From Candidatus Poribacteria bacterium (GTDB lineage Bacteria > Poribacteria > WGA-4E > WGA-3G), in assembly GCA_026702755.1 (NCBI GenBank), contig JAPPBX010000017.1:13743-77742 (forward strand): a stretch of 64,000 bases of DNA, in the 5' to 3' direction. How positions within the stretch are numbered: position 1 is the stretch's first letter; every line of letters begins with the position of its first letter. Positions 1 through 21,816 of this stretch are shown one piece after another. Under the pieces are notes generated by a model, which was not told where the DNA came from, ran no database searches, and worked only from the letters and a program-made list of their open reading frames with translations. The translations under genes and the position numbers were made by a program.

Positions 1-2
1 TA

Positions 3-1802
3 GACAGCCGCTTCACACAGAAATCGGGAATTTATACATTACAGTTGAGCGGAGGCACTCTGTTTGCCGGAACCTCTCTGGGAATCTACCGCTTCAAGAC
101 GGGAACTTGGGAACACCTACAGTTGCCAGTGGACAATACTGTGGTAGTGCGTTCTTTGGCGGTGTCTGAAGACACTATCTATGTCGCCGTAGAGGTAAAT
201 ATAATGGAAGGTGACGGAACGCCAGATGAAAATTACCATAATTTGTGTGACATCAGTAAAGATTCGTGGTGGGTATTCCGATCAACCGATGCAGGCGATT
301 CTTGGACAGATGTAACGCCTACAGATGCCCGAAATTTGATAATGAAAACGTTGCCGTCGATTAAACTGGTCGCATCTGGGAAAACTGTTTTACTGATAGG
401 TGGAGAGGAAGGCGTTGTGGCTCGCTCAACGGACTTTGGAAACACTTGGCGTTCCACAGAATCTTCCGGTATTACATCTATGCAGTTTAGTGTGGGTTCT
501 GCTGTCGCTTTAGACGAAAACACCTTTTATACTGGTGGCATCCCTGGAATCCATCAATCAAAGGATGGCGGTGAAACGTGGCACCGATTCAATACAAGGT
601 TTGAGTGCCGTGTGGATAATTTAATCAGTTTAGAGACGAGTCCAAATTCAAAAGCATCTAAGGTGCTGTACGCGACGGTTGTTGGCGGTGTGGTCAAATC
701 AACAGACGCAGGTAGTTCCTGGACTGCTGTTGACATCGAACGGGCAAGGTATACCCTTACGGTACCAAAGTTCAATGCGAAACTCAAAGATAGGGAAGAC
801 ACGCCGCTAATTGGACAGATTTCCGAAGTCAATGGTGTCCTATATGCAAAAGGGATTCGACGTAATTGTGAGACGGCCTACTATCGTTTAGATCCAGACA
901 AAAATTGCTTATTTCCTGTAGAGGGTTATATTTTTAGAGAGGGAAAGACACCGCCTTCGCGAGATTCAGGAAGGCTCATGTGGACCGTGTTCAAGGGAAT
1001 AACACTCCCCTTTGATTCTTACCGGCTACCGAAACAAGAGGGCCAAATTACCTTTACCAGCTCTACAGATCCGGACGCTGATTCTGAGGATTTATCAACG
1101 CAGATAATACGCGAGAATCCGAGATTTGGCGCAGAATGCTTTTTAAAACTGTTGGATCAAAAACAAGACGAGCATCAACTAACTTACACATTGATGTTGG
1201 AAGGCTTATACGGCAACTTCGCGGTGAGTGGAGAAACGTACTATATGGAGTACAACTATAAACTCTTCCGATGGAAACCGGGTGACACAAGATGGTCGGA
1301 TACCGGTGTAGAGGAAACTTGTGAACTCACGCGTGAAAATATGGGTCGAGGTTTTAAACTTGCTACATCGGGTGAAACAGTATACGTCGGTAAGCGGGAT
1401 GGACATCTCGTCCAATCGCTTGATGGTGGAGATAGTTGGAACGACATTACATCAAACCTACCGCTACCTGTTGCGCACTTCAATCAAATTGTCTTTGCCG
1501 ATTCGACGGTTCATATCGCAACTGACAAAGGCGTTTTCAATTCAATAGATGGTGTTGTGTGGAATGCAATCACCGATAAAGCGGGGAAAGACGTAATCAT
1601 TAAGTCGTTAGCAACAGCAGGGGATACTGTTTATGGCGCGAATGATGACGGCATCTATCACTTAGAAAAGGAAACAGGGACTTGGCAACAAATTGTGCCT
1701 GAAATTCCGGATACTATAACTTCTCTCGTTGTTGATAGAGATGCCTTTTACGTTGGCACCGAACATCGTGGCGTGCTCCGTTTTGAACGTTCTGAGTCGT
1801 AG
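3..1802 (+). CDS. BNR/Asp-box repeat (sortilin/Vps10-like beta-propeller) protein, C-terminal portion; the reading frame is open to the window edge, so the 5' end is missing
   Basis: Repeated SxDxGxTW Asp-box motifs (STDAGDSWTDV, STDFGNTWRS, SKDGGETWHRF, STDAGSSWTAV, SLDGGDSWNDI). It aligns along its whole length with the C-terminal 580 aa of ORF 5352..8447 (e.g. GNFAVSGETYYMEYNYKLFRWKPGD vs GNFAVSDETFYMEYNYKLFRWKPGD). There is no in-frame stop codon between nt 3 and the ATG at 45. Confidence 0.7.
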   Translation, partial: DSRFTQKSGIYTLQLSGGTLFAGTSLGIYRFKTGTWEHLQLPVDNTVVVRSLAVSEDTIYVAVEVNIMEGDGTPDENYHNLCDISKDSWWVFRSTDAGDSWTDVTPTDARNLIMKTLPSIKLVASGKTVLLIGGEEGVVARSTDFGNTWRSTESSGITSMQFSVGSAVALDENTFYTGGIPGIHQSKDGGETWHRFNTRFECRVDNLISLETSPNSKASKVLYATVVGGVVKSTDAGSSWTAVDIERARYTLTVPKFNAKLKDREDTPLIGQISEVNGVLYAKGIRRNCETAYYRLDPDKNCLFPVEGYIFREGKTPPSRDSGRLMWTVFKGITLPFDSYRLPKQEGQITFTSSTDPDADSEDLSTQIIRENPRFGAECFLKLLDQKQDEHQLTYTLMLEGLYGNFAVSGETYYMEYNYKLFRWKPGDTRWSDTGVEETCELTRENMGRGFKLATSGETVYVGKRDGHLVQSLDGGDSWNDITSNLPLPVAHFNQIVFADSTVHIATDKGVFNSIDGVVWNAITDKAGKDVIIKSLATAGDTVYGANDDGIYHLEKETGTWQQIVPEIPDTITSLVVDRDAFYVGTEHRGVLRFERSES

Positions 1803-1869
1803 TACCCAACACACATCACCTTGTTTGTTAGATACATGTTTTGTAAGTGTGCACATTGGAGCGTAATTA

Positions 1870-3381
1870 ATGCTAACAACACTCATTCGCCGGGAACTCC
1901 TTGATAACCTGATGACGTTCCGATTTGCTGCAGCTGCCTTGATTATGCTGTTGCTTGTCGTCGCGAATACCTCGGTGCTCATCACGGATCACGAGCAACG
2001 CTTGGCAAGCCACAATGCTGCGGTCAAAATGCATCAGAGGCAGCTTCAGGCGGCGAAAACGTATTCCTCAGGGATAAGGAAATTAGTCGTCGACCGACCC
2101 CCGAACCCGTTAAGCATTTTCAATGTCGGGTTCGATAAGCAGCTCGGAAACGAGGTTCAGATATCCCATTCGTATGTTCCATCGTTGTGGGACACCGGGA
2201 TGCATGGGTCGGACAATCCGTTTATGGATATGTTCGCTTCGCTGGATATTGTTTTTATCTTTGAGGTGATTCTGAGTTTATTGGCACTGATTTTCGCCTA
2301 CGATACGCTCGCTGGAGAATATGAACGTGGCACATTACGTCTGGTCTTGACACATCCGGTCCGTCGCGGGCATATCCTGCTTGCCAAATATATCAGTGCG
2401 ATGCTTTGCTTACTTGTGCCGTTGCTAATGAGCCTGCTCCTTGCAGTCATCTTGCTGACGATGACCCCTTCCATTTCTCTGAACACCGGTGATTTTTTGC
2501 GGATCGGAGGGATTATTTTAACCACCGTTGTATACCTTTCCGTATTCTATCTCATCGGACTGTTGATTTCGGCGGCGACGCGTCGGACCAGAACTGCGTT
2601 GATGCTCTCCATGTTTGTGTGGGGATTTTTGGTTCTTGTCTATCCGAATATGATTCTTGCCGTGGTCCCGCAACCGGAGGCACCGCAAGCGCGCCGGGCA
2701 TCCGCTTTTAATCAAATCGAACAGATGTGGGAGGAATTTGACAGAGACCGGAAACGGTTCCTCGCCACCGACGCGCTCCCAGGGGAAGACTGGCATTTTA
2801 ACATTCTGGGCAGTGGCGGGTATAGTGAAGGTCTTTGGGGTGACCCTAGTCGCTTGTTGTATGCCTACAACAGCAGCATGTCGGCTGGCAGCCTTAACGA
2901 TGAAGCTGAACCTAAGATTCCGCACGCCCAGAATTATTTCGGTTTCCTCGGGACCCAGGTTATCGGGACAGCAGACCAAACATGGCTCATCCGAAAGCCC
3001 GCACTGGAAGGCATCTTCACTCAACCCGCAAACGTGGAGCGACTCTATCTGAAACTCTCGCCCGTGGGACTGTATGATGCCGCAACACAAGCCTGGGCTG
3101 GCACAGACCTGCGCGGTGTCAGAGATTTTCTTGACGCTGCGAGACGACACAGACAGCGCGTAATTGACTATCTCTATGATGAAGAGGTATTCAAGTCTCG
3201 ACAGTGGTTTTCTTCGGACAAAGGTGCCGCAGATTGGAGCAATCTACCGCAGTTCTCTTTTCAAAGGGTCGATGTGAACACAAATGCAAAGCGAGCCTTA
3301 CCGGATTTAAGCATACTACTCATGCTTAATGTCATTATTTTCATCGTGATATTTCTGATTTTCATCAAAAGTGAAGTGTAA
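1870..3381 (+). CDS. ABC-2-type permease-like membrane protein (family A) with a large C-terminal extracytoplasmic domain and a terminal TM helix
   Basis: N-terminal TM helix; ABC-2 hallmark E-x-E-x-GTL (YERGTLRLVL); five further hydrophobic segments; about 220 aa of hydrophilic domain; a final TM helix (ILLMLNVIIFIVIFLIFI). Paralog of 9452..10987 (shared NPLSIFNVG, SDNPF, WFSSD[KR]GAA). Confidence 0.6.
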   Translation: MLTTLIRRELLDNLMTFRFAAAALIMLLLVVANTSVLITDHEQRLASHNAAVKMHQRQLQAAKTYSSGIRKLVVDRPPNPLSIFNVGFDKQLGNEVQISHSYVPSLWDTGMHGSDNPFMDMFASLDIVFIFEVILSLLALIFAYDTLAGEYERGTLRLVLTHPVRRGHILLAKYISAMLCLLVPLLMSLLLAVILLTMTPSISLNTGDFLRIGGIILTTVVYLSVFYLIGLLISAATRRTRTALMLSMFVWGFLVLVYPNMILAVVPQPEAPQARRASAFNQIEQMWEEFDRDRKRFLATDALPGEDWHFNILGSGGYSEGLWGDPSRLLYAYNSSMSAGSLNDEAEPKIPHAQNYFGFLGTQVIGTADQTWLIRKPALEGIFTQPANVERLYLKLSPVGLYDAATQAWAGTDLRGVRDFLDAARRHRQRVIDYLYDEEVFKSRQWFSSDKGAADWSNLPQFSFQRVDVNTNAKRALPDLSILLMLNVIIFIVIFLIFIKSEV

Positions 3382-3553
3382 AATGGCTATCAGCGGTCAG
3401 GTCGCTGCGCTTTCAGCAATCAGTTAAGAAACCTATGTGACGGTTGCTCGTGTGCTCACTCCCACAAACTGCTGATTACCGACTGCACTTACTAATATAG
3501 CACAATCACTCTTTGCTGAAGGCTCATTGCTGACAGCCGACAACCATAAAAAA

Positions 3554-4978
3554 ATGTGGCATATTGCGAAACGCGAACTTTATGATAATCTCAATAGCCT
3601 CCGATTTGCCCTGGCAACGGTGTTGTTGCTCGGCTTGATGTTGACCAACGCGATTGTACATCTCCGAGAACATCCGAAACGCGTCCAGAACTCTCGCAAT
3701 TATGTCGTCGAATATCAGAATCGCTTAGCATTTCATGCTGGGGATAGTTTGTATAAACTCGCCGAGCAGGGACCCGGGGACCTCCATAAGCAGCCATCTG
3801 TCCTCCGTTTCTGTGCAGAAGGCGGTGAGGCGTTTCTACCAAATTATGCGATAGGTGGTGCCGACCGTTGGGGACACGGCGGCCAACCGCCCTTAGAAAG
3901 TTTCTGGATACTGAACTATCCATCGGCCACCCCTGACCTGCATAATGTTCGCACAAACGTCACCAAAGTGGATTGGGGTTTTATCATCGGTTACGTCTTA
4001 AGTCTCATCGCGCTCCTATTCACCTTCGATGCGATTTCCCACGAACGCGAACGAGGCACACTGCGATTGATGTTGGCGAACTCGATTCCGCGTCATACCG
4101 TCCTGATTGGTAAGTTTTTAGGAGCATTAATCAGTATAAACATTCCTTTCACGCTTGCCGTCTTGGTGAATCTCTTAATGATTTCTACGTCAAGCGATGT
4201 ACACCTTAGTGCGGAGGCGTGGGGGCGTTTAGGGCTCATTTTCTCTATTGCGCTTTTGTACATAAGTCTATTTCTGGCGTTGGGGCTGCTTGTGTCGGCA
4301 CGTGTACAACGGAGCGCGGTGAGTCTCGTGATACTCCTCTTGGCTTGGGTCACCTTTGTCGTTTTTATGCCCAGTACACTCGTTTCGATTGCAGGGCGTT
4401 CTGCCCCGTCAACGTCTACTCTCGGATTTTCTGAACGCAGTGCTCAACTTGAGGAGGAACTTCTGCGCGAATACTACACGCTCCAATATGGTTCAAATAA
4501 GCCTTTAACTCAAATCCAAATATTACAAGTGGCAGGCGAGTTCGTCACCAAAGACGCAGCGCAGCAGGAACGCCTGCATGAAGAACGCTTAAAACAGCAA
4601 ATTTCTCAGGTCCGTCGGGCGCGTGCGATCACCCAAATTTCACCCGTCACCATTTTCTATCACCTCCTTGAAGCCTTTGCTGGAACGGGGTTTGAGCGAC
4701 ATTTGCAATTTTTAGAGAACGTTAAATCCTATGCCCAACAATTTCGGGTTTTCATCGCTGACACCGATCAAACCGATCCGGAGAGTCTTCATATCTTTGG
4801 GGTTCGTGAAGGGATGTCGCAGAAGCCTGTCGCTTCAGAGGCGATTCCAAAATTTGAAGATACCTTGAGTCTCAATAAGGACTTCAACACAGCAGCAGTC
4901 GATCTGTTGTTGCTAACGTTGTTCGTTGTAGTTTTACTATCCGCGGCGTATCTCGCGTTTGTCCGTGTCGAGCTTTAA
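3554..4978 (+). CDS. ABC-2-type permease-like membrane protein (family B)
   Basis: ERGTLRLML motif, multiple TM segments and a C-terminal TM. Paralog of 11149..12603 (MWHIAKRELYDNL vs MIWHIAKKEIYHNL; DPESLHIFGVREGMSQKPV vs DPESLHIYPVREGLSQKPV). The ATG at 3554 is preferred over the upstream TTG at 3527 because the paralog starts at the equivalent Met. Confidence 0.6.
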   Translation: MWHIAKRELYDNLNSLRFALATVLLLGLMLTNAIVHLREHPKRVQNSRNYVVEYQNRLAFHAGDSLYKLAEQGPGDLHKQPSVLRFCAEGGEAFLPNYAIGGADRWGHGGQPPLESFWILNYPSATPDLHNVRTNVTKVDWGFIIGYVLSLIALLFTFDAISHERERGTLRLMLANSIPRHTVLIGKFLGALISINIPFTLAVLVNLLMISTSSDVHLSAEAWGRLGLIFSIALLYISLFLALGLLVSARVQRSAVSLVILLLAWVTFVVFMPSTLVSIAGRSAPSTSTLGFSERSAQLEEELLREYYTLQYGSNKPLTQIQILQVAGEFVTKDAAQQERLHEERLKQQISQVRRARAITQISPVTIFYHLLEAFAGTGFERHLQFLENVKSYAQQFRVFIADTDQTDPESLHIFGVREGMSQKPVASEAIPKFEDTLSLNKDFNTAAVDLLLLTLFVVVLLSAAYLAFVRVEL

Positions 4979-5351
4979 CGCAAGCAAATCTTTCTTGTCT
5001 ACATATTCTGAATTTTCTTTTTAAACCTTTTCGATGAAAACCCCCCTCTTTGTAATTACAGTAAAATATACAATCACTTGAACATTGCGGAAGCGAAGAT
5101 ACAATCACCTTGCAATTTCGGGAAATATGACAGTATGAAGTTGGATTTCACTATGTTCTTGAGGATCTATGATCCTCTGTTGGATTTAAGAGATATTTGG
5201 GGCACCCACATCTGTCTCTTCAGTTCCGTTCAACCCAACCTACAGAAGACCTTGAAAAATAAAGATTGCAGAATTACGAAACTTTTTTATTTAAAGTAGC
5301 ATCTTAAATGTTAATATGAATTGATGAACATACCCTTTTCAGAGGTGTCCG

Positions 5352-8300
5352 ATGAAAAACAACGATGCTCAACTCATCCAACGCGTGCTTGAAGGCGATG
5401 ATACTGCGTTCTCCGTGCTTGTGAGAAAATATCAGAAATCCGTTCACGCACTGGCGTGGCGGAAGATCGGGGATTTCCATATCGCCGAGGATATTACACA
5501 GGATACCTTCCTGCAAGCGTATCAAAAACTCTCAACACTGAGAAAACCGCAGCGTTTCGCGGGTTGGCTCTATGTGATAGCAGCGAACTACTGCAAAATG
5601 TGGCTGCGTCAGAAACGTTTATCAACCCAGTCGTTGGAAAACACAAGCAGCGCGCAATTAGAAAAAGCAACCTATTCTGGATATGTTATTGAGGAAAACG
5701 AGCGGACAACAGCAGAAGCACAGCGCGAGATCGTCAAAAAGTTGCTTGCGAAGTTACAAGAGAGCGAGCGTACAGTCATCACCCTTTACTACCTTGGGGG
5801 AATGAATTATGAACAGATAAGCGAGTTTCTGGGTATGTCGGTTAGCGCGATTAAGAGCCGACTCCACCGAGCAAGACAACGATTAAAGAAGGAGGAACCG
5901 ATGATTCGAGAGGCTTTAGGCAACTTCCAAATTACACCAAATCTATCAGAGAATATTATGCGGGAGATTTCGCGTATGAACCCAATTGCGCCATCTAGCA
6001 GTAAACCGTTGGTGCCGTGGGCAATCGGCGTTTCCACATTAGTCGTTGTCTTTTTGATGGTAGGCGTTGGCAGTCAATACCTGTCGCGTTTCCAGAAACC
6101 CTACAGTTTCGATGCGACTTCGGAGATGACAGTTGAACTCATTGAAGCACCTATCGTGCTGAGCCTTGAATCCAAACCTGATGTCCGGACGCAGCTCGGA
6201 AACGTCAATACGCCAAGTAAGAACAATGCCTCTCATCGACAGCCTAATAAGGAAAAGTCTGTGGTTCACGAAACCTTGAAAGATTTCCAACACTCAGACG
6301 ATCTCGTGGAGGACATCATGAAATGGACTCGGGTACGTGAACCGGGTATATTGGGCGAAGTAGGTACCCTGTCAGGGACTTCGGAAAATACGCTCTATAC
6401 CGTTATAGGCGACAGGAGTATCTATAAGCTGCCATCGGGTGAGGAGGCGTGGCAACTTGTCGATGACACCTTCCTATATCAAAACACCGGCGGTAATATA
6501 CCCATAGCAGAGCGGGATGGTACACTTTATATTATCTTATCCAATGAATTGTATGCTTCCACTGATGATGGCGAAACTTGGCACTTCGTCGGCACCTGCC
6601 CCCAAGGGTATGTTAGGGAATTGAGGGTTACAGAAGATGCGCTTTACCTTTGTCTCAGTGACGGTATCTTCCGATCCGATGACGCTGGAAATTCTTGGAA
6701 GGATATAAGCAATGGCTTAGATGATCGCTTGTCCGAACACTCAGGAATTCATTCGTTACAAATGAGTCAAGGCACGCTATTTGTGAAAACCGATCTCGGA
6801 CTCTATCGTCTTGAGGCGGACACTTGGCAACACTTACGATTACCAGTAGATGAAGCCGTGCATGTTGGTTCTTTAGCGATATATGAGGACGAAATTTATG
6901 TCATAGCATCAGTGAATATTTTGGATTTCTATGGGGCTCCGAAAGATATTTGGGAGCGATTGTGGAAAGGCGAGATGCGTTCGTGGTGGATTTTCCGATC
7001 AACCGATGGGGGTGACGCATGGAAAGACATAACACCCATGAACGCTTGGAATCTGACGGGCTTCCGTCCGGATATAACGTTGATTACGACACGGAATACA
7101 CTCTTGGCAATCGGGAATGATGACGGTATGGTAGCACGCTCGGTTGATAGTGGAGACACTTGGACATCTATAGCGTCTTCAGGGATTTCTCCCATACAGT
7201 TCAGTGTGCGATGCGCTGTAGCTTTAGATGGAAACACATTTTATACGGGTGGCAGCAGTGGGATTCACCGTTCAACTGATGGTGGTAAGACGTGGCACCG
7301 CTTTCATACCGGACTGGAAAGTCGTGTTGATAATTTAGTTAGTTTCGTGGCAGATCAGGCACCAGACAGGTCTGCAGCACTTTACGCCAGCGTGGGTAAA
7401 CATTTTGTCAAATCGAACGATGGCGGAACATCCTGGGAGGCTGTCAGCTTGGCAGTGAACCCCAGTGCCCGTTTATCCCAAAAGCAACAACCGGAAATTG
7501 TGCAGGTAGCAAAAACTAATGGGGTGCTCTATGCAAAAGGAATTCAAGAAATTTATGAGACTGCTATTTTTCAGTTGTCTTCCGATGGTAATACTCTCAT
7601 CCCCGTTACAGGAACACCCCCTTCTTTAAGTTCATCTGGACTGGTGCAAAAAGTACTGGCGGGCAAGCGTTTCACTTTCAGAGACGAAAGACGATCAGTG
7701 CCGGAACTTCGCGTTGGCTTTTCTGGTGTAGCTGATGCCTTATTGGATGATTTATCAAAGACCCCTGATTTTGGGGCAGACAGTTTCTTTGAAAGATTGG
7801 TAGAGAGGCAAATAGACCCTCGAGTGGTCTATGAGTTAATACGGGAAGGATTATGGGGTAACTTCGCAGTCAGCGATGAAACGTTCTACATGGAATACAA
7901 CTATAAACTCTTCCGATGGAAACCTGGTGACCCAGAATGGCACGACACCGGTTTGGAGGAGACCGGTGAACTCCGTCGCGAGACCTTGTGGAGAGGCTTT
8001 AAAATCGCTGCATCGGACGGAACCGTCTATGTCGGTAAGCGGGATGGACATCTCTTACAATCGCTTGATGGGGGAGACACTTGGAATGATGTCACACCAA
8101 ATCTGCCCTTCTCTATCGAGCATTTCAAAGAGATAGTCTTTGCAGATTCAACGGTCTGCGTCGCGACTGATAAAGGGGTTTTTTATTCAAAAGATGGCGT
8201 TGTCTGGAATGTCCTTGTCGATGAGACGGGAAAACCTGTTATCATCAAGTCGTTATCTACAATAGGGGATTCCGTTTACGGTGCCAACGATGAAGGCATC

Positions 8301-8447
8301 TATTATCTACAAGGTGAGACAGATACTTGGGAACAAATTGCCCCAGAAGTTTCAGGTGTCGTGACTTCTCTCGTTGTGGACGAAAATATGTTTTACGTCG
8401 GCACGGAACGACGAGGTGTCCTGCGTTTTGAACGTACCAGCAGATAA
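5352..8447 (+). CDS. ECF sigma-70 factor fused in-frame to a transmembrane helix and an extracytoplasmic BNR/Asp-box beta-propeller domain (one-polypeptide sigma/anti-sigma-like sensor)
   Basis: Sigma-70 region 2 (FSVLVRKYQKSVHALAWRKIGDFHIAEDITQDTFLQAY). Region 4 HTH (ERTVITLYYLGGMNYEQISEFLGMSVSAIKSRLHRARQRLKK). Then about 45 aa, then a TM helix (WAIGVSTLVVVFLMVGVGSQYL). Then about 750 aa carrying Asp-box motifs (STDDGETWHF, SDDAGNSWKDI, STDGGDAWKDI, SVDSGDTWTSI, STDGGKTWHRF, SNDGGTSWEAV, SLDGGDTWNDV). A GGGG/SD-like sequence and the ATG lie at 5340-5354. Confidence 0.75.
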   Translation: MKNNDAQLIQRVLEGDDTAFSVLVRKYQKSVHALAWRKIGDFHIAEDITQDTFLQAYQKLSTLRKPQRFAGWLYVIAANYCKMWLRQKRLSTQSLENTSSAQLEKATYSGYVIEENERTTAEAQREIVKKLLAKLQESERTVITLYYLGGMNYEQISEFLGMSVSAIKSRLHRARQRLKKEEPMIREALGNFQITPNLSENIMREISRMNPIAPSSSKPLVPWAIGVSTLVVVFLMVGVGSQYLSRFQKPYSFDATSEMTVELIEAPIVLSLESKPDVRTQLGNVNTPSKNNASHRQPNKEKSVVHETLKDFQHSDDLVEDIMKWTRVREPGILGEVGTLSGTSENTLYTVIGDRSIYKLPSGEEAWQLVDDTFLYQNTGGNIPIAERDGTLYIILSNELYASTDDGETWHFVGTCPQGYVRELRVTEDALYLCLSDGIFRSDDAGNSWKDISNGLDDRLSEHSGIHSLQMSQGTLFVKTDLGLYRLEADTWQHLRLPVDEAVHVGSLAIYEDEIYVIASVNILDFYGAPKDIWERLWKGEMRSWWIFRSTDGGDAWKDITPMNAWNLTGFRPDITLITTRNTLLAIGNDDGMVARSVDSGDTWTSIASSGISPIQFSVRCAVALDGNTFYTGGSSGIHRSTDGGKTWHRFHTGLESRVDNLVSFVADQAPDRSAALYASVGKHFVKSNDGGTSWEAVSLAVNPSARLSQKQQPEIVQVAKTNGVLYAKGIQEIYETAIFQLSSDGNTLIPVTGTPPSLSSSGLVQKVLAGKRFTFRDERRSVPELRVGFSGVADALLDDLSKTPDFGADSFFERLVERQIDPRVVYELIREGLWGNFAVSDETFYMEYNYKLFRWKPGDPEWHDTGLEETGELRRETLWRGFKIAASDGTVYVGKRDGHLLQSLDGGDTWNDVTPNLPFSIEHFKEIVFADSTVCVATDKGVFYSKDGVVWNVLVDETGKPVIIKSLSTIGDSVYGANDEGIYYLQGETDTWEQIAPEVSGVVTSLVVDENMFYVGTERRGVLRFERTSR

Positions 8448-8629
8448 GCATATCCCTCATACATAAAAACATAACTGATCCGAAAAACTTAAAACTATGG
8501 TGAATTGTAAAAATAAGTTTACATTTCGTCGGGGACCCGGTAGGCAGGGTTTCCTGACTGGGTCAGTAGAAAAAATGTCTGCTTATTTTTGGGATTCACC
8601 ATAAATGACCCTAACGAGAGGAAAATAGA

Positions 8630-9451
8630 ATGGAAAAACTATTTGATTACGCTGTGCTATTTAGTGCGTTGATGCTTATTGCAGCAGGCTACGCTGCGGC
8701 AGATATTGCTGATGGCCTTGCGGTTCACTTTACGTTCGATTCCGTCAAAGGCAAGCGAATTCTTGACGAGTCCGGCAACGGTCTGGATGCCGAAGTTATC
8801 AAAAACACTCAATTTGTCAAGGGCAAATACGGAAAAGCAATTCGTATCACTGGTGAAACTGAAGATTGCGTGAATATCCCGTCCTCGGATGCCTTAAAAA
8901 TCAGTGATGAAATTACGATGATGGCATGGGTGTATCACGAAGATTGGACGCGGAGTTCTTCCCAATGGTTTGATAAGGGGTGCTATTCTAAGCACACTGA
9001 ATCTTACGGTATGGTAGTCTGGGGTAAAAAGGATTTTCCGGAACTAGGAGCCCTTGAAACGGACTCAGTGGTCTCGATGCTTGTTGGGGGTGCAGACTTG
9101 CAGCAAAGCATTACTACACCGAACGAAATGAAGCATAGGACATGGCATCATGTCGTCGGAACCTACGGTGATAAAGCTTTAAAAATCTATCTTGATGGAA
9201 AAATAATTGCTAATTTACCTTCACAGGTTGATGACTTCTTCGGCACCAACGAGGAGGATTTGCGGGTTGGCTGTGCGAAAAATAAACCGCAGTACGCATT
9301 TGAAGGCGGTTCCATTGATGAAGTTGCGATATGGAGTCGTGTGCTCAGTGAAGATGAAGTCAGAACCGCGATGCAGGGCCCCTTGCTCGCAATCTCGCCG
9401 AAGGGTAAGGTCACTACGACGTGGGGCAATATGAAGCGGAAGGCGTTTTAG
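8630..9451 (+). CDS. Secreted LamG_3 / concanavalin A-like lectin-glucanase superfamily protein (paralog 1)
   Basis: Signal peptide MEKLFDYAVLFSALMLIAAGYAAA. LamG_3-type motifs (GLAVHFTFD; ITMMAWVY; C-terminal IDEVAIWSRVLSEDEV). GAGG RBS. The stop codon abuts the next ATG (TAGATG at 9449-9454). The C-terminal tail is GKVTTTWGNMKRKAF. Confidence 0.7.
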   Translation: MEKLFDYAVLFSALMLIAAGYAAADIADGLAVHFTFDSVKGKRILDESGNGLDAEVIKNTQFVKGKYGKAIRITGETEDCVNIPSSDALKISDEITMMAWVYHEDWTRSSSQWFDKGCYSKHTESYGMVVWGKKDFPELGALETDSVVSMLVGGADLQQSITTPNEMKHRTWHHVVGTYGDKALKIYLDGKIIANLPSQVDDFFGTNEEDLRVGCAKNKPQYAFEGGSIDEVAIWSRVLSEDEVRTAMQGPLLAISPKGKVTTTWGNMKRKAF

Positions 9452-10987
9452 ATGTCTGAATCGCGGAGGACTTGGTATAAATTTATGACAACACTTTGGC
9501 TAATTATCCAGCGAGAATTCGTCTCAAATGTTCTGACCTCCCGATTCATGATCGGTTTTGTGGTCTGTCTGATGTCGACAGCTGCTGCCGTTTTCGTTCA
9601 GGTTGCAGATTACGAAAAGCGATTGGGAACATATCACGTTGCTGTTCAGGAACATCACGAAGAGAAGCGAATGTGGGACCTCTACAGCCAAATTAATCCA
9701 AAGGCATATAGGAAACCGAATCCACTCAGCATCTTTAACGTCGGCATGGAAAAATCCGGTGCGGATATGGTGAGTATTAAATTGGCAACACCTATTTGGG
9801 AGAAAGAAGCACAGAAACAGGGATCAGACAACCCATTCCTTTCAATTTTCCTTTCTATTGATGTCATTTTCGTCTTCAAAATCGTGCTCAGTGCGTTGGC
9901 AATTTTGTTTGCTTACAACACAATTTCAGGGGAGAGGGAGGATGGTACCCTAAAACTGGTGTTATCCAATCCGGTTTCGAGGGACGCGCTCGTACTTGGG
10001 AAATACCTTGGTGGCGTGTTATCTCTGTTTCCGATTGTGGTGATGAGTTTCACTGTTGGCATCGTTATTGCTTACACCTCTCCTGCTACTGATTTTGATG
10101 CTGATGATCTGCTACGCCTCGTCATGGTGCTCGTTGTTTCGCTGTTGTATGTGTCAATCTGTTATCTTTTAGGGATGCTCTTATCTGTGTGGACAAAGGA
10201 AGCAGCGACTACGCTGATCCTTTCGATGTTTATTTGGGGAATTCTGACAATTGTCCATTCAAATATAGCAACGTTTGCAGTCGCGAAGTTCCCACCGCGT
10301 AAACCTCAACCCGAAAAAGAAGTGCTGCAACAGATTGATCAGATGTGGGAAAATTTCAAGGAAGAACGAAATGCCCAACTGAAAAAGTGGGGATATAAGT
10401 ATCCAACAAGCGCGCTTTCTTGGATAGCCGATGGTCCTCTGACACTGTCGATTGAAATGCGGTCGCCAGGGGAACTCGGGTTCCAAGAACTTTATGAAAT
10501 CAAACCTATTGACATCTTAGATGTTTCCAAATTTCAGGAAGTATTAGGCTACCAAGAACCGCTCCGTATTGATTATGTAAACAAAGCTGAGGAAATTTTC
10601 AAACGGAGGGAGGACATTCGCGAAAGGAACAGTCAACTCGCCAGAGATATTTCCCGGGTATCTTTCGCGGACACATATCGTTTTGCTGTCGGCGCAATTA
10701 TAGGCACGGACAGGAAGAGTTATAATGATTTTATCGGACAGGTGAGAAATTATAAGCGTCAAGTTGTGGACTACCTCGCCGGTAAGAATGCATTTTCCGC
10801 GCGAGCGTGGTTTTCGAGTGATAGGGGAGCTGCAGAACTCACAGATCTACCTGTTTTTCAGCACCGATATAACTCCCTTTCTGAGGGTCTCTCGCGTGCG
10901 TCGGGTGATATTTTTATTTTATTAGCGTGGAATGTTATTCTGTTCATGGGCGCATACGTATCGTTCCTCCGGTATGATATGAGTTGA
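9452..10987 (+). CDS. ABC-2-type permease-like membrane protein (family A, second copy)
   Basis: Paralog of 1870..3381. EREDGTLKLVL motif, TM segments, a large C-terminal hydrophilic domain and a terminal TM helix. The start is translationally coupled to the upstream LamG gene. An alternative start at Met12 (MTTLWLIIQREF) is possible. Confidence 0.6.
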   Translation: MSESRRTWYKFMTTLWLIIQREFVSNVLTSRFMIGFVVCLMSTAAAVFVQVADYEKRLGTYHVAVQEHHEEKRMWDLYSQINPKAYRKPNPLSIFNVGMEKSGADMVSIKLATPIWEKEAQKQGSDNPFLSIFLSIDVIFVFKIVLSALAILFAYNTISGEREDGTLKLVLSNPVSRDALVLGKYLGGVLSLFPIVVMSFTVGIVIAYTSPATDFDADDLLRLVMVLVVSLLYVSICYLLGMLLSVWTKEAATTLILSMFIWGILTIVHSNIATFAVAKFPPRKPQPEKEVLQQIDQMWENFKEERNAQLKKWGYKYPTSALSWIADGPLTLSIEMRSPGELGFQELYEIKPIDILDVSKFQEVLGYQEPLRIDYVNKAEEIFKRREDIRERNSQLARDISRVSFADTYRFAVGAIIGTDRKSYNDFIGQVRNYKRQVVDYLAGKNAFSARAWFSSDRGAAELTDLPVFQHRYNSLSEGLSRASGDIFILLAWNVILFMGAYVSFLRYDMS

Positions 10988-11148
10988 GGAGGAGGGTTAT
11001 CAGTTTTTTAGTTTTCAGTTTTCAGTTAAGATGCGCTTTGTAACAATCTTCCCACCATAGAATATTTTAGGGCGAGGTGAATTGTTACCAGAAACCTCTT
11101 GTGACTGATAACTGTTAACTGACCGCTGACAACTGACAACCATTAAAA

Positions 11149-12603
11149 ATGATTTGGCATATTGCGAAAAAAGAGATATATCATAACCTCATGACGCTGC
11201 GGTTCGTTTTGATGGTAATCCTGCTGCCTGCCCTAATGCTGGCGAACGCGCTCATATACGGCTTCGGCGATAGTGGATATAGAGAGGAAGTCGATGCGTA
11301 TAACCTCGCGATGGAAAGAAGATTGTCTCGCGTTAAGGACGATGCCGACGAGAGTTTAGGGAAACTCGCTATGCGGGGTCCCGGTGAGATTTACAAGCGT
11401 CTGAGTCGATTCAAATTTTGTGCTGATGGGGCTGCTGAACTCATCCCGAACTCTATCCCCATTGCAGCGCATGGAGGCGGTCGTGGAGGTAGTGGTGGTG
11501 TAGTAGAAGACTACAGTTGGCGAGAAATGTGGACTCTTGAATATCTACCGTCAAATCATGGAGGCGGCGCAACCACACTTATCAAAATCGACTGGGTGTT
11601 CATCGGTATCTTCATGGGTTTCTTTGTTATACTATTCACTTTCGATGCCATTGCCGGGGAACGGACAAAGGGAACACTGAGCCTCATGATGTCTAACCAG
11701 ATTTCCCGAGGACAGATGCTATTCGCGAAATATCTGGGCACGTTTTTTACACTCATGGTGCCGCTCACAATAGGTATCCTCATGAACCTACTGGTCATCT
11801 ATCTTTCAGGGAGTATTTCGTTTAGTTCGAGTGATTGGCTTAGAATTTTAGGGATGGTCGGACTTTTTACGCTGCATATCTCTATCTTTATTTTTCTCGG
11901 ACTGTTCTTCTCAAGTCGGGTATCAAACGCCATCACCAGTTTAGTGTGGTTGCTATTAACTTGGGTATGCTTGGCGTTTATCTTTCCGAGCTTACTCGGA
12001 CTTTTCGTTGGTACCCTCGACCCGATTCCGTCAATAGAGATCGTCTCCTCGCGAAAACGTGCACAATTAGCAAACATCGAGGATGAATTTCGTCCAATGG
12101 AGTTGTTGGAGGTAACCAAACTAAGCGAGGCACCTTCACCTGATAATCCATCAGCCACACGCCGATGGGCAACGTACTTCACGAGAAGGTACGAAACGAA
12201 AACCCGTATAGCCGACGAACACGTAGATCAGCAATTGAGGCAGGTGAAACTCGCCAGGGAACTCACCCAAATCTCTCCGATAGTTTGCTTCCAATATGCA
12301 ATGGAAGGGCTTGCAAACACTGGGATTGTTAGTTATATGGATTTTGTCAAGCAGGTTCGCCGTTACAGACAAACATTTATAGATTTCATCAAAACGGAGG
12401 ATCAAGGCGATCCGGAGAGTTTACATATCTATCCTGTGAGAGAAGGGTTGTCTCAGAAACCGGTGGACCCAAACGCTATACCAAGGTTTAAAGAGCGCAT
12501 TTCATATCAAAGTGTGATTTTTCCTGTCGGACTGTTAATCCTTTTTAATATCTTGTTCTTTACTGCAGCGCAGTTGTCCTTTCTGAAATGTGATCTGAAA
12601 TAA
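11149..12603 (+). CDS. ABC-2-type permease-like membrane protein (family B, second copy)
   Basis: Paralog of 3554..4978. ERTKGTLSLMM motif. Gly-rich loop GGGRGGSGG. It is preceded by the CTGACAACTGACAACC-ATTAAAA-ATG leader motif. Confidence 0.6.
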   Translation: MIWHIAKKEIYHNLMTLRFVLMVILLPALMLANALIYGFGDSGYREEVDAYNLAMERRLSRVKDDADESLGKLAMRGPGEIYKRLSRFKFCADGAAELIPNSIPIAAHGGGRGGSGGVVEDYSWREMWTLEYLPSNHGGGATTLIKIDWVFIGIFMGFFVILFTFDAIAGERTKGTLSLMMSNQISRGQMLFAKYLGTFFTLMVPLTIGILMNLLVIYLSGSISFSSSDWLRILGMVGLFTLHISIFIFLGLFFSSRVSNAITSLVWLLLTWVCLAFIFPSLLGLFVGTLDPIPSIEIVSSRKRAQLANIEDEFRPMELLEVTKLSEAPSPDNPSATRRWATYFTRRYETKTRIADEHVDQQLRQVKLARELTQISPIVCFQYAMEGLANTGIVSYMDFVKQVRRYRQTFIDFIKTEDQGDPESLHIYPVREGLSQKPVDPNAIPRFKERISYQSVIFPVGLLILFNILFFTAAQLSFLKCDLK

Positions 12604-12610
12604 GAACTTT

Positions 12611-12639
12611 TTGACTCTTTTCGTTAAATCTGCTATCAT
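12611..12639 (+). promoter_or_regulatory. Candidate sigma-70 promoter for LamG paralog 2 (TTGACT-17-TATCAT)
   Basis: ttgactcttttcgttaaatctgctatcat lies about 90 nt upstream of the ATG at 12732. Confidence 0.35.
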
Positions 12640-12731
12640 TTTTCCAATTGATGTGGTGGTACGCGGTTAAGCGTATTTTCACTGGTTCCGAGACCTTTTT
12701 ATTTTCTCTAACCTGTCAAAAGGAGTTTATC

Positions 12732-13526
12732 ATGAAAAGGGTTCTTGTGATTTTCGCGGTGATTGGGATACTCATCAGTTTTGCACCGTGTAGTAAAGCC
12801 AATCCGCCGGATGGATTAGTGCTACATCTGAGTTTCGATAAAAATAGCATTCAAGGCGATACCGCAAAAGATCTGTCTGAGGAAGGCAATGATGGGATCA
12901 TTAACGGTAACGCAACGATGGTCGCGGGAAAGCATGGCGACGCATTGGAGTTTGATGGCAAGGATGACTTTGTTGAAGTACCACTGGAAGATTCGATTAC
13001 CTTTTCCACTGGCGATTCACTAACAGTCCAAGTGTGGGTAAAAACAGACGATGAGCCACCAAAGAACGATGGGATTGTCGGAAACTATCGTCCGGGTACT
13101 GATGCGGTTTGGATACTCTCTGTCAGCGGCGATAACCCAGCGACTCGTGGCAAAATGGCTTTTAGTGTCCGGGACAAGGGACGTGCCAATAGTGCTGGGA
13201 TAACTTCTCCGGACTTCCTGAACGATGACAAATGGCATGTCCTTGCTGGTGTCCGAGACCAGAAAGCAAAAAAGATCAGATTCTACATAGACGGTAAGTT
13301 GATTGATGAAGTTGATGACAATACAAAGGACATCAACAGCGGGCAGTCAATTTGGGTAGGAGAGCATCTGAACCGGTATTACAAGGGACTCATTGATGAA
13401 GTGAAAGTGTGGAACCGTCCATTGACCGCCGCGGAACTTGAGCAATCAGGCCAACAACCGTCTGCTGTTGGTGCCTCCGGAAAGTTGACGACTGTATGGA
13501 GTGCGCTCAAAACAGCACACCGGTAG
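12732..13526 (+). CDS. Secreted LamG_3 / concanavalin A-like protein (paralog 2)
   Basis: AAGGAG RBS then ATG. Signal peptide MKRVLVIFAVIGILISFAPCSKA. LamG_3 motifs (GLVLHLSFD, LTVQVWV, C-terminal LIDEVKVWNRPLTAAELEQ). C-terminal tail GKLTTVWSALKTAHR. Confidence 0.7.
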   Translation: MKRVLVIFAVIGILISFAPCSKANPPDGLVLHLSFDKNSIQGDTAKDLSEEGNDGIINGNATMVAGKHGDALEFDGKDDFVEVPLEDSITFSTGDSLTVQVWVKTDDEPPKNDGIVGNYRPGTDAVWILSVSGDNPATRGKMAFSVRDKGRANSAGITSPDFLNDDKWHVLAGVRDQKAKKIRFYIDGKLIDEVDDNTKDINSGQSIWVGEHLNRYYKGLIDEVKVWNRPLTAAELEQSGQQPSAVGASGKLTTVWSALKTAHR

Positions 13527-13544
13527 TATTCTATCCAGTAGGGG

Positions 13545-13575
13545 CGAGGTGACCTCGCCCCTACTGCGAACTTAA
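13545..13575. terminator. Perfect 13-bp-stem hairpin between convergent genes (candidate bidirectional terminator)
   Basis: agtaggggcgaggt-ga-cctcgcccctact lies immediately after the LamG-2 stop and is flanked by A/T-rich sequence. Confidence 0.45.
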
Positions 13576-13687
13576 TCTAAAAATAAAAGCAGTATCTGAT
13601 TTGATCATAGGGGATATTTAGGCACCCCCCTCGGTTAAACAACTAAAATAAGAACTCGGGCAACTGGTTCCGTTTGAATGTTGAACC

Positions 13688-14743
13688 TTAACTTAGCGAA
13701 AAAACGCTCACCCCACCCGACTCGTCACCAACAGCAATATACTGGTCGTTCGGTGACCAAACGAGGCTTGTGACCCCCGCTGCCAGGGCGGCTTCATGAA
13801 CCGCCAGAGAACTCATTCTGCCTCGCAATTGCCAGACGTAGATCAGACCGTCAGCACCACCTGAGGCGAGCAGTTTTCCGCGATGTTGAAAACGCACAAC
13901 GCTGAGAAAATCCTGATGCCTGGAAAGCGTGATCGGGTTGGTCCCAGCCGGGCCGCGACCGGAACAATCCCACACCGTAACTTCCTGACTGCCTCCGGTA
14001 GCCAAGTATCGACTCGTGGCATCCCACGAGAGTTCTCGCACTTTCGTCGGATAGCCAGTCATTTGCAAGTCTTCACCGGTAGACATAATCCAGAAATGTA
14101 CGGTCGAATCTTGATCTCCGGTGGCGATGTGTTTGCCGTCAGGGCTCCACGCAATTACCAGTGATGAGCCTTTCCATTCCAATCGGCGGACGGCTTCCGA
14201 CTGTTGCGGGTCCCACAGCGTGACACCGCCGTAGGCAATCGAGGCAAGTTGTCTTACACGCGGTCTCCACTGGAGATCAGAAATCGTGCTCTGATGATCG
14301 GAATATTCGCGAACAAGATCGCCGACAGCGTTCCAGAGTTTCAGCTTACGCCCCGCGGCAGAGGCGAGTATCGGTTTCTTGCCGCCACTCCAAGATAGAT
14401 GCTCAACCCATGCAGCGCCCCCGTCAAGCGAATGGGTCGCTTCGCCACTCGCCATATCCCACAACCGAATTTTCCCATCTTGTCCTGCGCTTGCAAGCAC
14501 CTTGCTGTCTGGACGCCATGCGATTGACATTGTACCGAATTCATGCCCTTCAAAGGCATGGATAACCGTTCGACGACCACCTTCAAAAATTGTAACCGGA
14601 CCGAGAACCGACGCGGCAGCAATGTATCTCCCATCAGGGGACCACGCCAGATCAATGACGTGGTCGCTGATGGTTACGGTCCAATTTTCGCGCAGTTGAG
14701 AGGGCTGGAAAAAGCGGTTGCTCAGGTTGTTCAAGCGAGACAT
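13688..14743 (-). CDS. WD40-repeat beta-propeller protein
   Basis: Multiple WD-like blades (AWSPDGRYIAAASVLGPVTIFE; IAWRPDSKVLASAGQDGKIRLWD; AWSPDGKHIATGDQDSTVHFW; VWSPNDQYIAVGDESGGVSVFS). Its start overlaps the 3' end of the upstream COG0523 gene by 13 nt. Confidence 0.8.
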   Translation of the reverse strand: MSRLNNLSNRFFQPSQLRENWTVTISDHVIDLAWSPDGRYIAAASVLGPVTIFEGGRRTVIHAFEGHEFGTMSIAWRPDSKVLASAGQDGKIRLWDMASGEATHSLDGGAAWVEHLSWSGGKKPILASAAGRKLKLWNAVGDLVREYSDHQSTISDLQWRPRVRQLASIAYGGVTLWDPQQSEAVRRLEWKGSSLVIAWSPDGKHIATGDQDSTVHFWIMSTGEDLQMTGYPTKVRELSWDATSRYLATGGSQEVTVWDCSGRGPAGTNPITLSRHQDFLSVVRFQHRGKLLASGGADGLIYVWQLRGRMSSLAVHEAALAAGVTSLVWSPNDQYIAVGDESGGVSVFSLS

Positions 14744-16083
14744 GCTTCAAATCCTTCAGTCAATTCAGACCGGTCGAGGTTGCGCCCGATGAAGATAAGG
14801 CTATTGTAGCGCGGTTCACCACCCCACGGGCGGTCGGGGCGACCGTCGAAGAGCATATGAACCCCTTGGAAGACGAATCGTTCTGGCTGCCCCTTGATGC
14901 TCAGAATACCTTTCATGCGGAAGATGTCGGGACCTTTTGTCCGAAGCAGGTTGCCAATCCAATCGTTCAGCCGGTCAGGGTCGAGGTCGCCGGGGGTTGT
15001 GATGCCGACCGATGTGACTTCGTCATCATGTTCGTGGTCCGGCTTAAATTCGCGTTCAACAACTGGCTTGACAAGGGTACCGCTGCCAAAGAGTTGTGCT
15101 TGAAATTCGTCGGGGTGATGCTCGGTAAACAGCGCGTAAGCACCGGGGCGGCCGATCTGCACGTCAAAGCGTAATTCGTCCGCCGTGAGATTCAATGCAA
15201 TGAGGTGTCCACCCGGTTGAAGGGTGCCACCCGCCGAAAGTTCATGCTCATCATCGGAGAAAACCATAACGACTGGCTCAACAGCGGACTCCAAAGCTTC
15301 ATCGGTTGACGCACTTACGGGCACCAACGCGACTTTCATCGCCGGGTCAGGACCTTCTTGGAGAACCAGTTCATGCGTGCCTGCCGAAAGGTCATAAACA
15401 CCAGCCCATTCAAACGGATACTCCGGTTCCATAAACTGTGGGTCAATCTCCATCGCCCGGTCCAGATCGAATCCACCGACATTGAGAATCTTGTCCATTT
15501 CAACCACGGCGTCTTTCGTTCGATAAATCTTCGCTGCAGCGTTCATGCTGCGAATTCTGGCTTCCAGTTGCTCTAACTCTCCCTCGGTCACAAGGTCAAT
15601 CTTGTTCAACAAAATGACATCGGCAAAGGCAATCTGTTCACGCGCCTCGTCGCTGTCATCGATGTGCTGCCAGATGTGTTTGGCATCAACCAGTGTCGTG
15701 ACGGAATCCAGTTGCAGTTTCTCCTGCATTTCGGTGTCCATAAAGAACGTCTGAGCAACTGGCCCGGGGTCCGCAAGTCCTGTGGTTTCGACCATGATGT
15801 AGTCAAACTTATCGCGACGCTTCATCAGATTCCCCAAAATACGGATGAGATCACCGCGCACCGTGCAGCAAATGCAACCATTGTTCATCTCGAAAATCTC
15901 TTCTTCGGCACCGATGACCAAATCATTATCGACACCGATCTCGCCAAACTCGTTTTCGATGACGGCGATACGTTTGCCATGGTTTTCGGTGAGAATGCGG
16001 TTGAGAAGCGTGGTTTTACCAGATCCCAAAAAGCCCGTCAACACGGTGACAGGAACTTGATTGTTTAGCATGGCTGTGTTCAT
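14731..16083 (-). CDS. COG0523-family (CobW/ZigA/YciC-like) metallochaperone GTPase
   Basis: Walker A VLTGFLGSGKTTLL. Metal-binding GCICCTVRGDL (CxCC) motif. ETTGLADPGPV switch region. C-terminal CobW_C-like region. AAGGAGAG RBS. Confidence 0.85.
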   Translation of the reverse strand: MNTAMLNNQVPVTVLTGFLGSGKTTLLNRILTENHGKRIAVIENEFGEIGVDNDLVIGAEEEIFEMNNGCICCTVRGDLIRILGNLMKRRDKFDYIMVETTGLADPGPVAQTFFMDTEMQEKLQLDSVTTLVDAKHIWQHIDDSDEAREQIAFADVILLNKIDLVTEGELEQLEARIRSMNAAAKIYRTKDAVVEMDKILNVGGFDLDRAMEIDPQFMEPEYPFEWAGVYDLSAGTHELVLQEGPDPAMKVALVPVSASTDEALESAVEPVVMVFSDDEHELSAGGTLQPGGHLIALNLTADELRFDVQIGRPGAYALFTEHHPDEFQAQLFGSGTLVKPVVEREFKPDHEHDDEVTSVGITTPGDLDPDRLNDWIGNLLRTKGPDIFRMKGILSIKGQPERFVFQGVHMLFDGRPDRPWGGEPRYNSLIFIGRNLDRSELTEGFEACLA

Positions 16084-16102
16084 CTTTCTCTCCTTGTAGA
16101 AT

Positions 16103-21812: not shown

Positions 21813-21816
21813 AAGG

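Follow-up and report, generated by a model that had tools for sequence, protein, structure and literature searches.

ATP-binding cassette (ABC) exporters are usually viewed as fixed assemblies of one ATPase and one membrane unit. Among importers, the group II energy-coupling factor systems and the MsiK/MsmK sugar systems are built on one ATPase module with many scattered, substrate-specific membrane components. The described systems closest to the locus reported here are of the ABC-2 (type V) kind. NosDFY(L) (PDB 7o0y) is the ABC-2 machinery of nitrous oxide reductase maturation, and its permease NosY is a 276-amino-acid (aa) homodimer without large periplasmic inserts. YbhGFSR of Escherichia coli combines two different ABC-2 permeases (YbhS and YbhR) with one ATPase and a periplasmic accessory protein (PMC7190983), and KpsMT-KpsE-KpsD (PDB 8tsh) is an envelope-spanning exporter; in both, one permease pair per ATPase is encoded in a single operon, with an accessory of the HlyD type or the polysaccharide co-polymerase (PCP) type. 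GldA/GldF/GldG joins an ABC-2 permease to a protein with a large periplasmic loop and a terminal transmembrane (TM) segment. The region analyzed here comprises the first 13,526 nucleotides of a 64,000-nucleotide stretch of a Candidatus Poribacteria genome (the window; contig JAPPBX010000017.1), the scaffold of which (ENA ERZ23496730 scaffold_116, 120.5 kb, locus L001 in our numbering) comes from a sponge metagenome assembly. It carries two pairs of ABC-2 permease genes, A1-B1 and A2-B2, interspersed with genes for fusions of extracytoplasmic function (ECF) sigma factors to BNR propellers and with genes for secreted Laminin_G_3 (LamG) proteins.

It is probable, with appreciable room for doubt, that the region consists of satellite permease cassettes under sigma-factor control, which draw on a common ATPase and outer-membrane module and belong to a NosY-like multi-permease exporter. 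On this reading, the region would represent two satellite cassettes of an ABC-2 export system that has been greatly expanded in Poribacteria. Within each cassette, A and B would form a heterodimeric membrane unit with a conserved cytoplasmic face (N-terminal helix and E-x-E-x-G-T-L loop) and a diversified periplasmic face (loop 1 and a helical DUF3526 insert). The cassettes would be without an ATPase because the family uses one ATPase type from a core operon elsewhere, made up of a C-type permease, (A-B)n pairs, a 244-aa DrrA-like ATPase, a periplasmic protein of 787 aa (p787), and a TolC-like outer-membrane factor. The window pairs would dock on the core ATPase dimer and probably share its periplasmic protein and outer-membrane channel, moving substrate out of the envelope. 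Each cassette would be headed by, and probably co-transcribed with, a gene for a membrane-tethered ECF sigma factor with a periplasmic BNR propeller as its sensor. Individual outside signals would thus each activate their own permease pair. The LamG proteins would assist particular pairs in the periplasm, as accessory subunits or as determinants of specificity. The full proposal of a combinatorial exporter, with one ATPase/p787/TolC-like engine and at least eight dispersed sigma-gated heterodimers of transmembrane domains per genome, some with LamG specificity subunits, is put forward tentatively, at slightly less than an even chance.

The permeases are encoded at 1870-3381 (A1, 503 aa), 3527-4978 (B1, 483 aa), 9452-10987 (A2, 511 aa), and 11149-12603 (B2, 484 aa), and all genes in positions 1-13526 lie on the + strand. 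Profile searches, which an earlier note on this DNA had recommended, placed ABC2_membrane_2 (PF12679) in all four proteins (E values of 1e-25 to 1e-31, the latter in B1; 90-110 bits against a cut-off of 27.2) and DUF3526 (PF12040, cut-off 25 bits) in three of them (A1, 35.2 bits; B1, 35.0; B2, 35.3), with A2 below cut-off at 16.6 bits. The view that A1/A2 and B1/B2 are paralog pairs was confirmed by blastp, with 31.5% and 35% identity, respectively, and 22-26% between A and B proteins. The TM scan found six segments in each permease, five of them followed by a large domain and then TM6; the earlier note had allowed for six or more, and none of the four has more. The positive charges are distributed as expected for a cytoplasmic N-terminus. 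Two regions are periplasmic, namely loop 1 (86-112 aa) and the insert of 172-214 aa that forms the DUF3526 region, the latter since it is located between TM5 and TM6; in A1 these inserts span residues 39-124 and 267-480, and B1 has the same architecture. A cytoplasmic loop of 25-34 aa after TM2 bears the sequence E-x-E-x-G-T-L in A1, B1, and A2. The earlier note had assigned this motif to all four permeases, and B2 has the variant ERTKGTL. From its position, the TM2-TM3 loop is inferred to contact the ATPase.

A structural model was generated with AlphaFold2 (AF2). A run with 21 close homologs (pLDDT 46.5) was discarded and an alignment of 119 sequences (23% mean identity) was used instead, which yielded a pLDDT of 92 and a pTM of 0.90. 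The modelled six-TM fold with its N-terminal amphipathic helix superposes on solved type V permeases, KpsM being among the fold matches, and the modelled periplasmic part consists mostly of long helices (an extension of TM1 and residues 272-300, 344-394, and 414-437) plus a beta-hairpin. The only solid sequence match in the PDB was NosY (E 1.3e-11), in which GEDEGGTL aligns with GEYERGTL of A1. The membrane core works like NosY, but the proteins are not NosY orthologs: they are longer, carry the two large inserts, occur as heteropairs, and have no adjacent ATPase gene. No nosD, nosZ, nosL, or other nos genes were found in the 64-kb window. The earlier description of the permeases as either NosY-like or GldF/GldG-like was therefore retained in its first part and abandoned in its second, the score against TIGR03518 being 26-31 bits where 288.5 are needed. 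There is a resemblance to the Gld system in that the ATPase described below belongs to the same broad DrrA/GldA-like subfamily, but here the permease itself contains the large loop, inserted between TM5 and TM6, and the window has neither a GldG match among its proteins nor an adjacent ATPase.

Conservation is concentrated on the predicted cytoplasmic side. Residues E150, E152, G154, and L156 are nearly invariant in the 119-sequence family alignment, and the E-x3-G-T motif is present in 184 of 187 A, 176 of 177 B, and 9 of 9 C proteins of the Poribacteria loci described below. The coupling loop has a mean pairwise identity of 0.76-0.83, TM2 one of 0.75-0.79, and the N-terminal segment with TM1 one of 0.77, compared with 0.50-0.59 for the periplasmic inserts; the parts predicted to face the ATPase are thus the best conserved parts of all A and B copies, satellites included. 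The wider family is large: clustered at 50% identity, it has 4013 representatives with E values of up to 1e-3, of which 582 have E values of up to 1e-30, and homologs of A1 are 62-95% identical in Candidatus Poribacteria genomes. One protein (P0308, 7950 aa), which has 63 stretches matching A1, was considered as a giant permease array and rejected as a repetitive, eukaryote-like artefact with TM1-like matches only.

The absence of an ABC ATPase gene from the 13-kb region, as stated in the earlier note, was borne out by a phmmer scan of all six-frame open reading frames (ORFs) of the 64 kb, in which one ABC ATPase was found, the FtsE-like gene at 40651. The same state is conserved across species, with no ATPase within 10 kb on either side of A1 in about 20 orthologous loci; none was present in the 8 kb upstream of the window on the source contig, and a shorter contig matched by the last window gene carries Liv-type importer genes and no relevant ATPase. 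The FtsE-like protein, correctly described before as having lost catalytic residues, retains an intact Walker A and has the signature ISGNE, an Ala in place of the catalytic Glu of Walker B (LLLLADAPT), and a Ser in place of the His of the H-loop (ATSD). An FtsX gene follows it (40651-42370), and because it adjoins FtsX the degenerate FtsE is regarded as irrelevant to the permease locus; its candidacy as the partner ATPase was rejected on this pairing and on its 26-30% identity to the family ATPases. These substitutions suggest that FtsE may be catalytically dead in this lineage.

The ratio of permeases to ATPases was determined in 80 Poribacteria loci (1.52 Mb), which were annotated with phmmer probes made from the window proteins. 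These loci contain 187 A, 178 B, and 8 C genes versus 7 cognate ATPase genes. A is directly followed by B in 173 of the 187 full-length cases, and 6 of the 74 permease runs with a visible 3' end terminate in the ATPase gene; beside none of these 74 ends was a second stand-alone ATPase type found. In about 20 Poribacteria species, loci orthologous to the window, defined by an A1 identity of at least 82%, retain the order sigma-BNR, A, B, sigma-BNR, LamG, A, B, LamG, in which either LamG gene may be lacking. Paralogous loci are tandem (A-B)n arrays of up to 9 permease genes in 21 kb, the copies inside one array being 58-64% identical, and at least 8 A genes per chromosome are visible from two or three fetched loci alone.

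The family ATPase is a stand-alone protein of about 244 aa, assigned to the DrrA-like subfamily, with an intact Walker A, the signature FSKGMRQR, a Walker B with its Glu, and the H-loop His. Its gene is located 210-270 bp past the last B gene in six loci (L035, L042, L044, L051, L052, and L076) and follows two C-type permease genes in another (L062). Each ATPase gene with enough downstream sequence is then followed by a p787 homolog and a TolC-like OEP gene, the three being contiguous in L042, L044, L051, L052, L076, L085, and L087. A homolog (P0121) that is 93% identical to the ATPase of sister Poribacteria loci was found on scaffold_1361 of the assembly that contains the window, and its exact sequence occurs in 3 of the 3 assemblies in which exact window proteins occur. 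The ATPase contig is also part of an NCBI metagenome-assembled genome (GCA_028824855.1), to which an exact CobW match did not link the window, since that protein was found in the same three ENA assemblies only. The GC content of scaffold_1361 is 0.481 and that of the window 0.480, with a tetranucleotide correlation of r 0.915; for reference, r is 0.948 between the two halves of the window and below 0.3 for other phyla. The earlier idea of a system lacking an ATPase is not supported in view of this intact enzyme. It has a conserved operon that is present in the assembly of the window, its gene directly follows A-B pairs in sister genomes, and in other phyla it shares an operon with permeases of the family. 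An ordinary ATPase in a conserved operon elsewhere had been named in the earlier note as evidence against its proposal, together with loss of the LamG/BNR association in relatives; the former was found and the latter was not.

The core locus of the window's lineage comprises a C-type permease, a frameshifted A remnant, p224, the ATPase, p787, and OEP (PF02321, 2e-35); the OEP gene is absent from the 64-kb window. The C-type permease is intact in L085 (360-3345 region) and has the same called length of 479 aa in L086. In this lineage p224 is a gene of its own; other Poribacteria have the domain as part of an ECF sigma fusion. The engine locus thus has too few permeases, and the window locus has no ATPase. 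The periplasmic protein p787 (787 aa) has an N-terminal coiled coil, Ig-like/NEW3 repeats, and a C-terminal TM anchor; its Pfam matches are limited to NPCBM_assoc/CARDB and it has no NCBIfam match. An adaptor role is suggested only by the coiled coil, the C-terminal TM, and the operon position. As in tripartite pumps of the MacAB-TolC and YbhGFSR type, an outer-membrane factor gene is linked, here in the core locus and in L093 and L101 outside Poribacteria. The system resembles YbhGFSR in its two different ABC-2 permeases, one ATPase, and periplasmic accessory, and Kps in its envelope-spanning logic, but it differs from both in having many permease pairs per ATPase outside a single operon and in an accessory with Ig/NEW3 repeats and a C-terminal anchor.

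Operons outside Poribacteria combine the same components. In L093-L095 (Latescibacteria-type), a p787-like NPCBM_assoc protein, OEP, the ATPase (65% identical), and two permeases are encoded next to a divergent pair of genes for an ECF sigma factor and a ZAS anti-sigma factor. Two permeases, the ATPase, and a p787-like protein are encoded in L100, and a p787-like protein, OEP, two permeases, the ATPase, and four more permeases in L101. In L103 (GC 0.60; 420-17782), the ATPase gene is followed by ten consecutive permease genes on one strand, and in L104 (named Sedimentisphaerales by NCBI; 1-14988), two permeases and the ATPase are followed by a LamG-permease fusion, a 284-aa gene, and five more permeases; the L104 run has eight further genes, seven of which were called ABC-2 permeases, and the 284-aa product has no family match. 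The number of permeases per single ATPase gene is accordingly 2 (L093, L100), 6 (L101), or 10 (L103). All permeases of these outgroup operons keep the E-x3-G-T motif, and their ATPases are 55-75% identical to that of Poribacteria. A and B were considered as one-to-one counterparts of the two outgroup permeases, which was rejected after similarities proved about equal in all directions. A 6.8-Mb chromosome (L102) carries two ATPase copies (5315-6049 and 10001-10735) that are 98% identical to each other, reflecting either a recent duplication or gene conversion; the permeases that precede the copies are about 25-34% identical to the window A, B, and C types and differ in their best matches. Because of these multi-permease operons, the service of several different membrane pairs by one ATPase type is taken as a trait of the family, which Poribacteria have carried furthest by scattering the pairs. 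Several distinct membrane units per ATPase gene, seen in the Poribacteria totals and in operons with ratios of 1:6 and 1:10, recall the group II ECF and MsiK/MsmK systems, but those are importers with different folds and the units here are type V exporter heterodimers.

The BNR proteins were shown to be parts of sigma factors. The gene at 5352-8447 encodes a protein of 1031 aa with Sigma70_r2 (5e-14), Sigma70_r4_2 (6e-16), Sortilin-Vps10, and PSII_BNR matches in Pfam and 100 bits to TIGR02937 against a cut-off of 42.9; its ECF sigma portion (residues 1-185) is followed by a TM segment (221-239) and a periplasmic BNR/Sortilin-type propeller region of about 790 aa. The first ORF of the window (3-1802, open to base 3) contains the C-terminal 599 codons of a 935-aa ECF-sigma/TM/BNR-propeller fusion that runs off the window start; it likewise matches Sortilin-Vps10 and PSII_BNR, and it is 54% identical to the C-terminal 575 residues (match at 457-1029) of the 5352-8447 protein. 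The BNR products had been viewed as free secreted propellers, a view set aside now that the propellers are recognized as the outside domains of membrane-tethered ECF sigma factors; this also makes regulation, and not service as cargo or structural partners, their most likely role. Sigma or sigma-fusion genes directly flank a same-strand permease gene in 59 of 71 cases and lie immediately 5' of an A gene in 37. Paralogous fusions carry other C-terminal domains, such as WD40 and p224-like domains.

Sigma cores with a C-terminal extension and no separate anti-sigma factor form a known non-canonical class (PMC7826278), in which ECF52 and ECF220 have transmembrane C-terminal extensions, and ECF258 is linked to ABC transporters (PMC7826278, PMC5826349). 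The fusions studied here share with these groups the sigma2/sigma4 core, the TM segment with an outside domain, ECF autoregulatory motifs, and the link to transporters; they differ in the size and type of the BNR/Sortilin sensor and in the many paralogous fusions, each with its own permease pair. No anti-sigma domain was detected in the sigma fusion, and the fusion does not resemble the ZAS anti-sigma factor encoded in the outgroup. In the linker (residues 186-220), LSENIMREI resembles DFTERVMAQV, which stands after the ZAS domain of an outgroup anti-sigma factor (L094, 4872-5450). This hints at a fusion of sigma and anti-sigma genes with subsequent loss of the anti-sigma domain.

Promoter-like motifs accompany these genes. 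Upstream of 19 of the 69 sigma genes, the sequence TGCAACC-N17-TGTCAC stands at a fixed position (-69), compared with a single case when the reverse complement served as control; it has 22 matches in 3 Mb, of which 17 precede sigma-BNR genes, and both sigma-BNR genes 5' of A1 belong to this class. An ECF-type promoter-like motif, CGAAAC-N17-CATC, is found at 5277-5303 (+ strand), about 50-75 nt 5' of the start codon of the 5352-8447 gene. The conserved motif reads (G/C)(T/G)GA(A/G)AC-N17-GC(A/G)TC, and it is kept in orthologs as GTGA(A/G)AC-N17-GC(A/G)TC, a pattern with 15 matches in 3 Mb, 8 of them just upstream of sigma genes. Both motifs resemble classic ECF -35/-10 pairs, which suggests autoregulation. 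A further conserved ECF-like motif, G(G/C)CAAC-N18-CGTCAC, was observed about 206-248 nt before the first visible A gene in L033, L034, L041, L047, L049, L057, and L082. It is present in 7 of 188 A upstream regions, all in sigma-less arrays, and these arrays may also be under ECF control. A weakly supported terminator-like hairpin (5161-5177, + strand) follows B1, ahead of the next sigma-BNR gene, and may mark the boundary of the two cassettes; no Rfam family was found in 1-14000.

The two LamG genes encode secreted proteins with an N-terminal hydrophobic segment and Laminin_G_3 (PF13385) domains scoring 73.7 bits in LamG1 (8630-9451, 2e-20) and 82.4 bits in LamG2 (12732-13526, 264 aa, 5e-23), against a cut-off of 27.6. 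The LamG2 ORF is open from a TTG at 12648, and its start is most likely the ATG at 12732. The LamG1 stop (TAG, 9449-9451) directly abuts the A2 start (ATG, 9452) in a TAGATG junction, exactly as noted previously, and the same abutment occurs in L010 and L019. A LamG gene follows B2 in many orthologous loci, and in the whole set of loci a LamG gene stands after a B gene in 12 cases and before an A gene in 5. Fusions of LamG_3 to permeases of this family were found in nine protein clusters (Planctomycetota-type, 36-69% identity, one named Sedimentisphaerales by NCBI) with the layout signal peptide, LamG_3 domain(s), and permease; they are located inside multi-permease operons, and one permease per run is such a fusion in L103 and L104 (contigs of about 60% GC). 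In the two fusions that were scanned (P0310 and P0391), an extra TM segment links LamG and permease and keeps the topology consistent, and among the window proteins A2 is most similar (31%) to the permease portion of P0310. Since LamG is a fixed domain of the permease in relatives, there is good evidence that it acts as a periplasmic subunit of particular pairs and not as cargo. The association of permease pairs with propeller and LamG genes is real, as the earlier note had maintained: the gene order is kept in about 20 species, and LamG_3-permease fusions occur elsewhere.

Several observations weigh against the proposal of satellite cassettes on a shared engine. The evidence for the predicted A/B-ATPase complex consists of sequence and gene context. 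The ATPase counts cover the fetched loci, so that further dedicated ATPases could be encoded elsewhere on the chromosomes, and L102 has two ATPase copies. The ATPase scaffold and the window, which come from a metagenome assembly, are assigned to one genome because they occur together in 3 of 3 assemblies and match in composition. Scans for generic sigma-70 promoters and for terminators scored no better than shuffled sequences, and co-transcription is a probable reading. The protein p787 has no HlyD or membrane fusion protein (MFP) signature in Pfam or NCBIfam, and the analogy to tripartite pumps is one of gene neighbourhood. LamG genes touch a permease gene in 17 of 28 cases in the loci, LamG_3 genes being common, with two more in the window at 33165 and 36120; adjacency of LamG and permease is by itself weak evidence because such genes are frequent in the genome. 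In the core locus, the A gene is reduced to frameshifted pieces (residues 1-175), and the C permease of L083 (7627-10000), whose gene layout is shared by L084, is cut to residues 94-398. This apparent partial decay fits an engine dependent on permeases encoded elsewhere; it could also mark a decaying system.

The last possibility, extended to the cassettes themselves as decaying duplicates without present function, is highly improbable: truncated and frameshifted permease remnants do occur in the core locus of this lineage, but the four window ORFs are full length, their orthologs are full length and 82-95% identical in about 20 species, and array paralogs at 58-64% identity are kept as distinct lineages with intact motifs. 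The surface-assembly module proposed in the earlier note, in which ATPase-free permeases would have the adjacent LamG and BNR proteins as their cargo, for export or assembly, agrees with the conserved adjacency and with the signal sequences of the LamG proteins. It is very unlikely, because the BNR domains are parts of sigma fusions and not free secreted proteins, the LamG proteins would reach the periplasm through their own N-terminal signals without a pump and are subunits in relatives by virtue of their fusion to permeases, and an ATPase exists in a conserved operon.

Two other explanations concern the engine itself. Conventional exporters might each have a dedicated ATPase elsewhere, with the core ATPase serving only its neighbouring permeases. 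The limited scope of the counts and the additional copy in L102 leave room for this, and other ABC genes do lie near some sigma-A-B loci (L024, L070, L073, L081, and L056), but these are 600-aa half-transporters with fused transmembrane and nucleotide-binding domains or a distant gene on the opposite strand. With no second stand-alone ATPase type at the 74 visible run ends, no two of the 120 best ATPase matches on contigs of one chromosome-sized length (as A homologs are), and operons of one ATPase with 6-10 permease genes showing that the family shares, dedicated ATPases are judged unlikely. Alternatively, the satellite pairs might be independent of any ATPase and serve as signalling or anchoring partners that hold or release the sigma-TM-BNR proteins in an anti-sigma-like manner, with LamG as co-sensor. 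Some ABC transporters, such as those of the Bce type, do serve regulators as sensors, and the lack of an anti-sigma domain in the fusions, their position beside permease genes in most cases, and a locus without ATPase would all be accommodated. Against this stand the conservation of the ATPase-facing motif and loop, which are the best conserved features in all A and B copies, the existence of long (A-B)n arrays without any sigma gene, and the ordinary ZAS anti-sigma partner of the outgroup sigma factor, which together make an ATPase-independent role unlikely.

With respect to layout, the full order across window and source contig is sigma-BNR, sigma-BNR, A1, B1, sigma-BNR, LamG1, A2, B2, LamG2, and A1 starts 67 nt past the stop of the upstream sigma-BNR gene. 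The gene order and coordinates given in the earlier note were reproduced, except that its first "BNR propeller" is a partial sigma fusion and is preceded by a further fusion of 913 aa on the source contig, itself preceded by NTP-transferase, M28 peptidase, and sulfatase genes. The duplication of the module is old, since DNA similarity between the two modules is confined to short stretches of 71-77%. Elsewhere in the window, two secreted LamG_3 genes that are 64% identical flank the gene for a 636-aa AAA-family ATPase (33165-36896), with no permease gene linked. A cluster on the - strand (13688-25703) encodes a TonB-dependent receptor, a MerC-like protein, ZnuA, a 1078-aa FlgD_ig/Por_Secre_tail protein, a CobW-family GTPase, and a WD40 protein, the start of which overlaps the CobW stop by 13 nt; this cluster looks related to zinc supply.

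The paper library that was searched contained no match for DUF3526, and its literature on ABC2_membrane_2 and Poribacteria ABC-2 systems yielded no description of such a system, and we know of no account of one ATPase shared by many type V exporter heterodimers; the system is apparently an undescribed ABC-2 exporter variant. If the sharing is false, what remains is a well-conserved, sigma-controlled ABC-2 cassette of an ordinary kind. If it is true, type V systems would gain a new design principle, in which a single ATPase gene can serve as many as ten membrane-subunit genes of one operon, and the principle of the group II ECF importers would have its counterpart among exporters. DUF3526, with about 4,000 clusters at 50% identity, would also become approachable at the level of function. 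For the sponge symbiont, sharing would mean efflux or secretion that is programmable signal by signal, would explain part of the large load of ECF-sigma, LamG, and propeller genes in such symbionts, and would provide a testable model of how an uncultured symbiont tunes export across its envelope to host signals.

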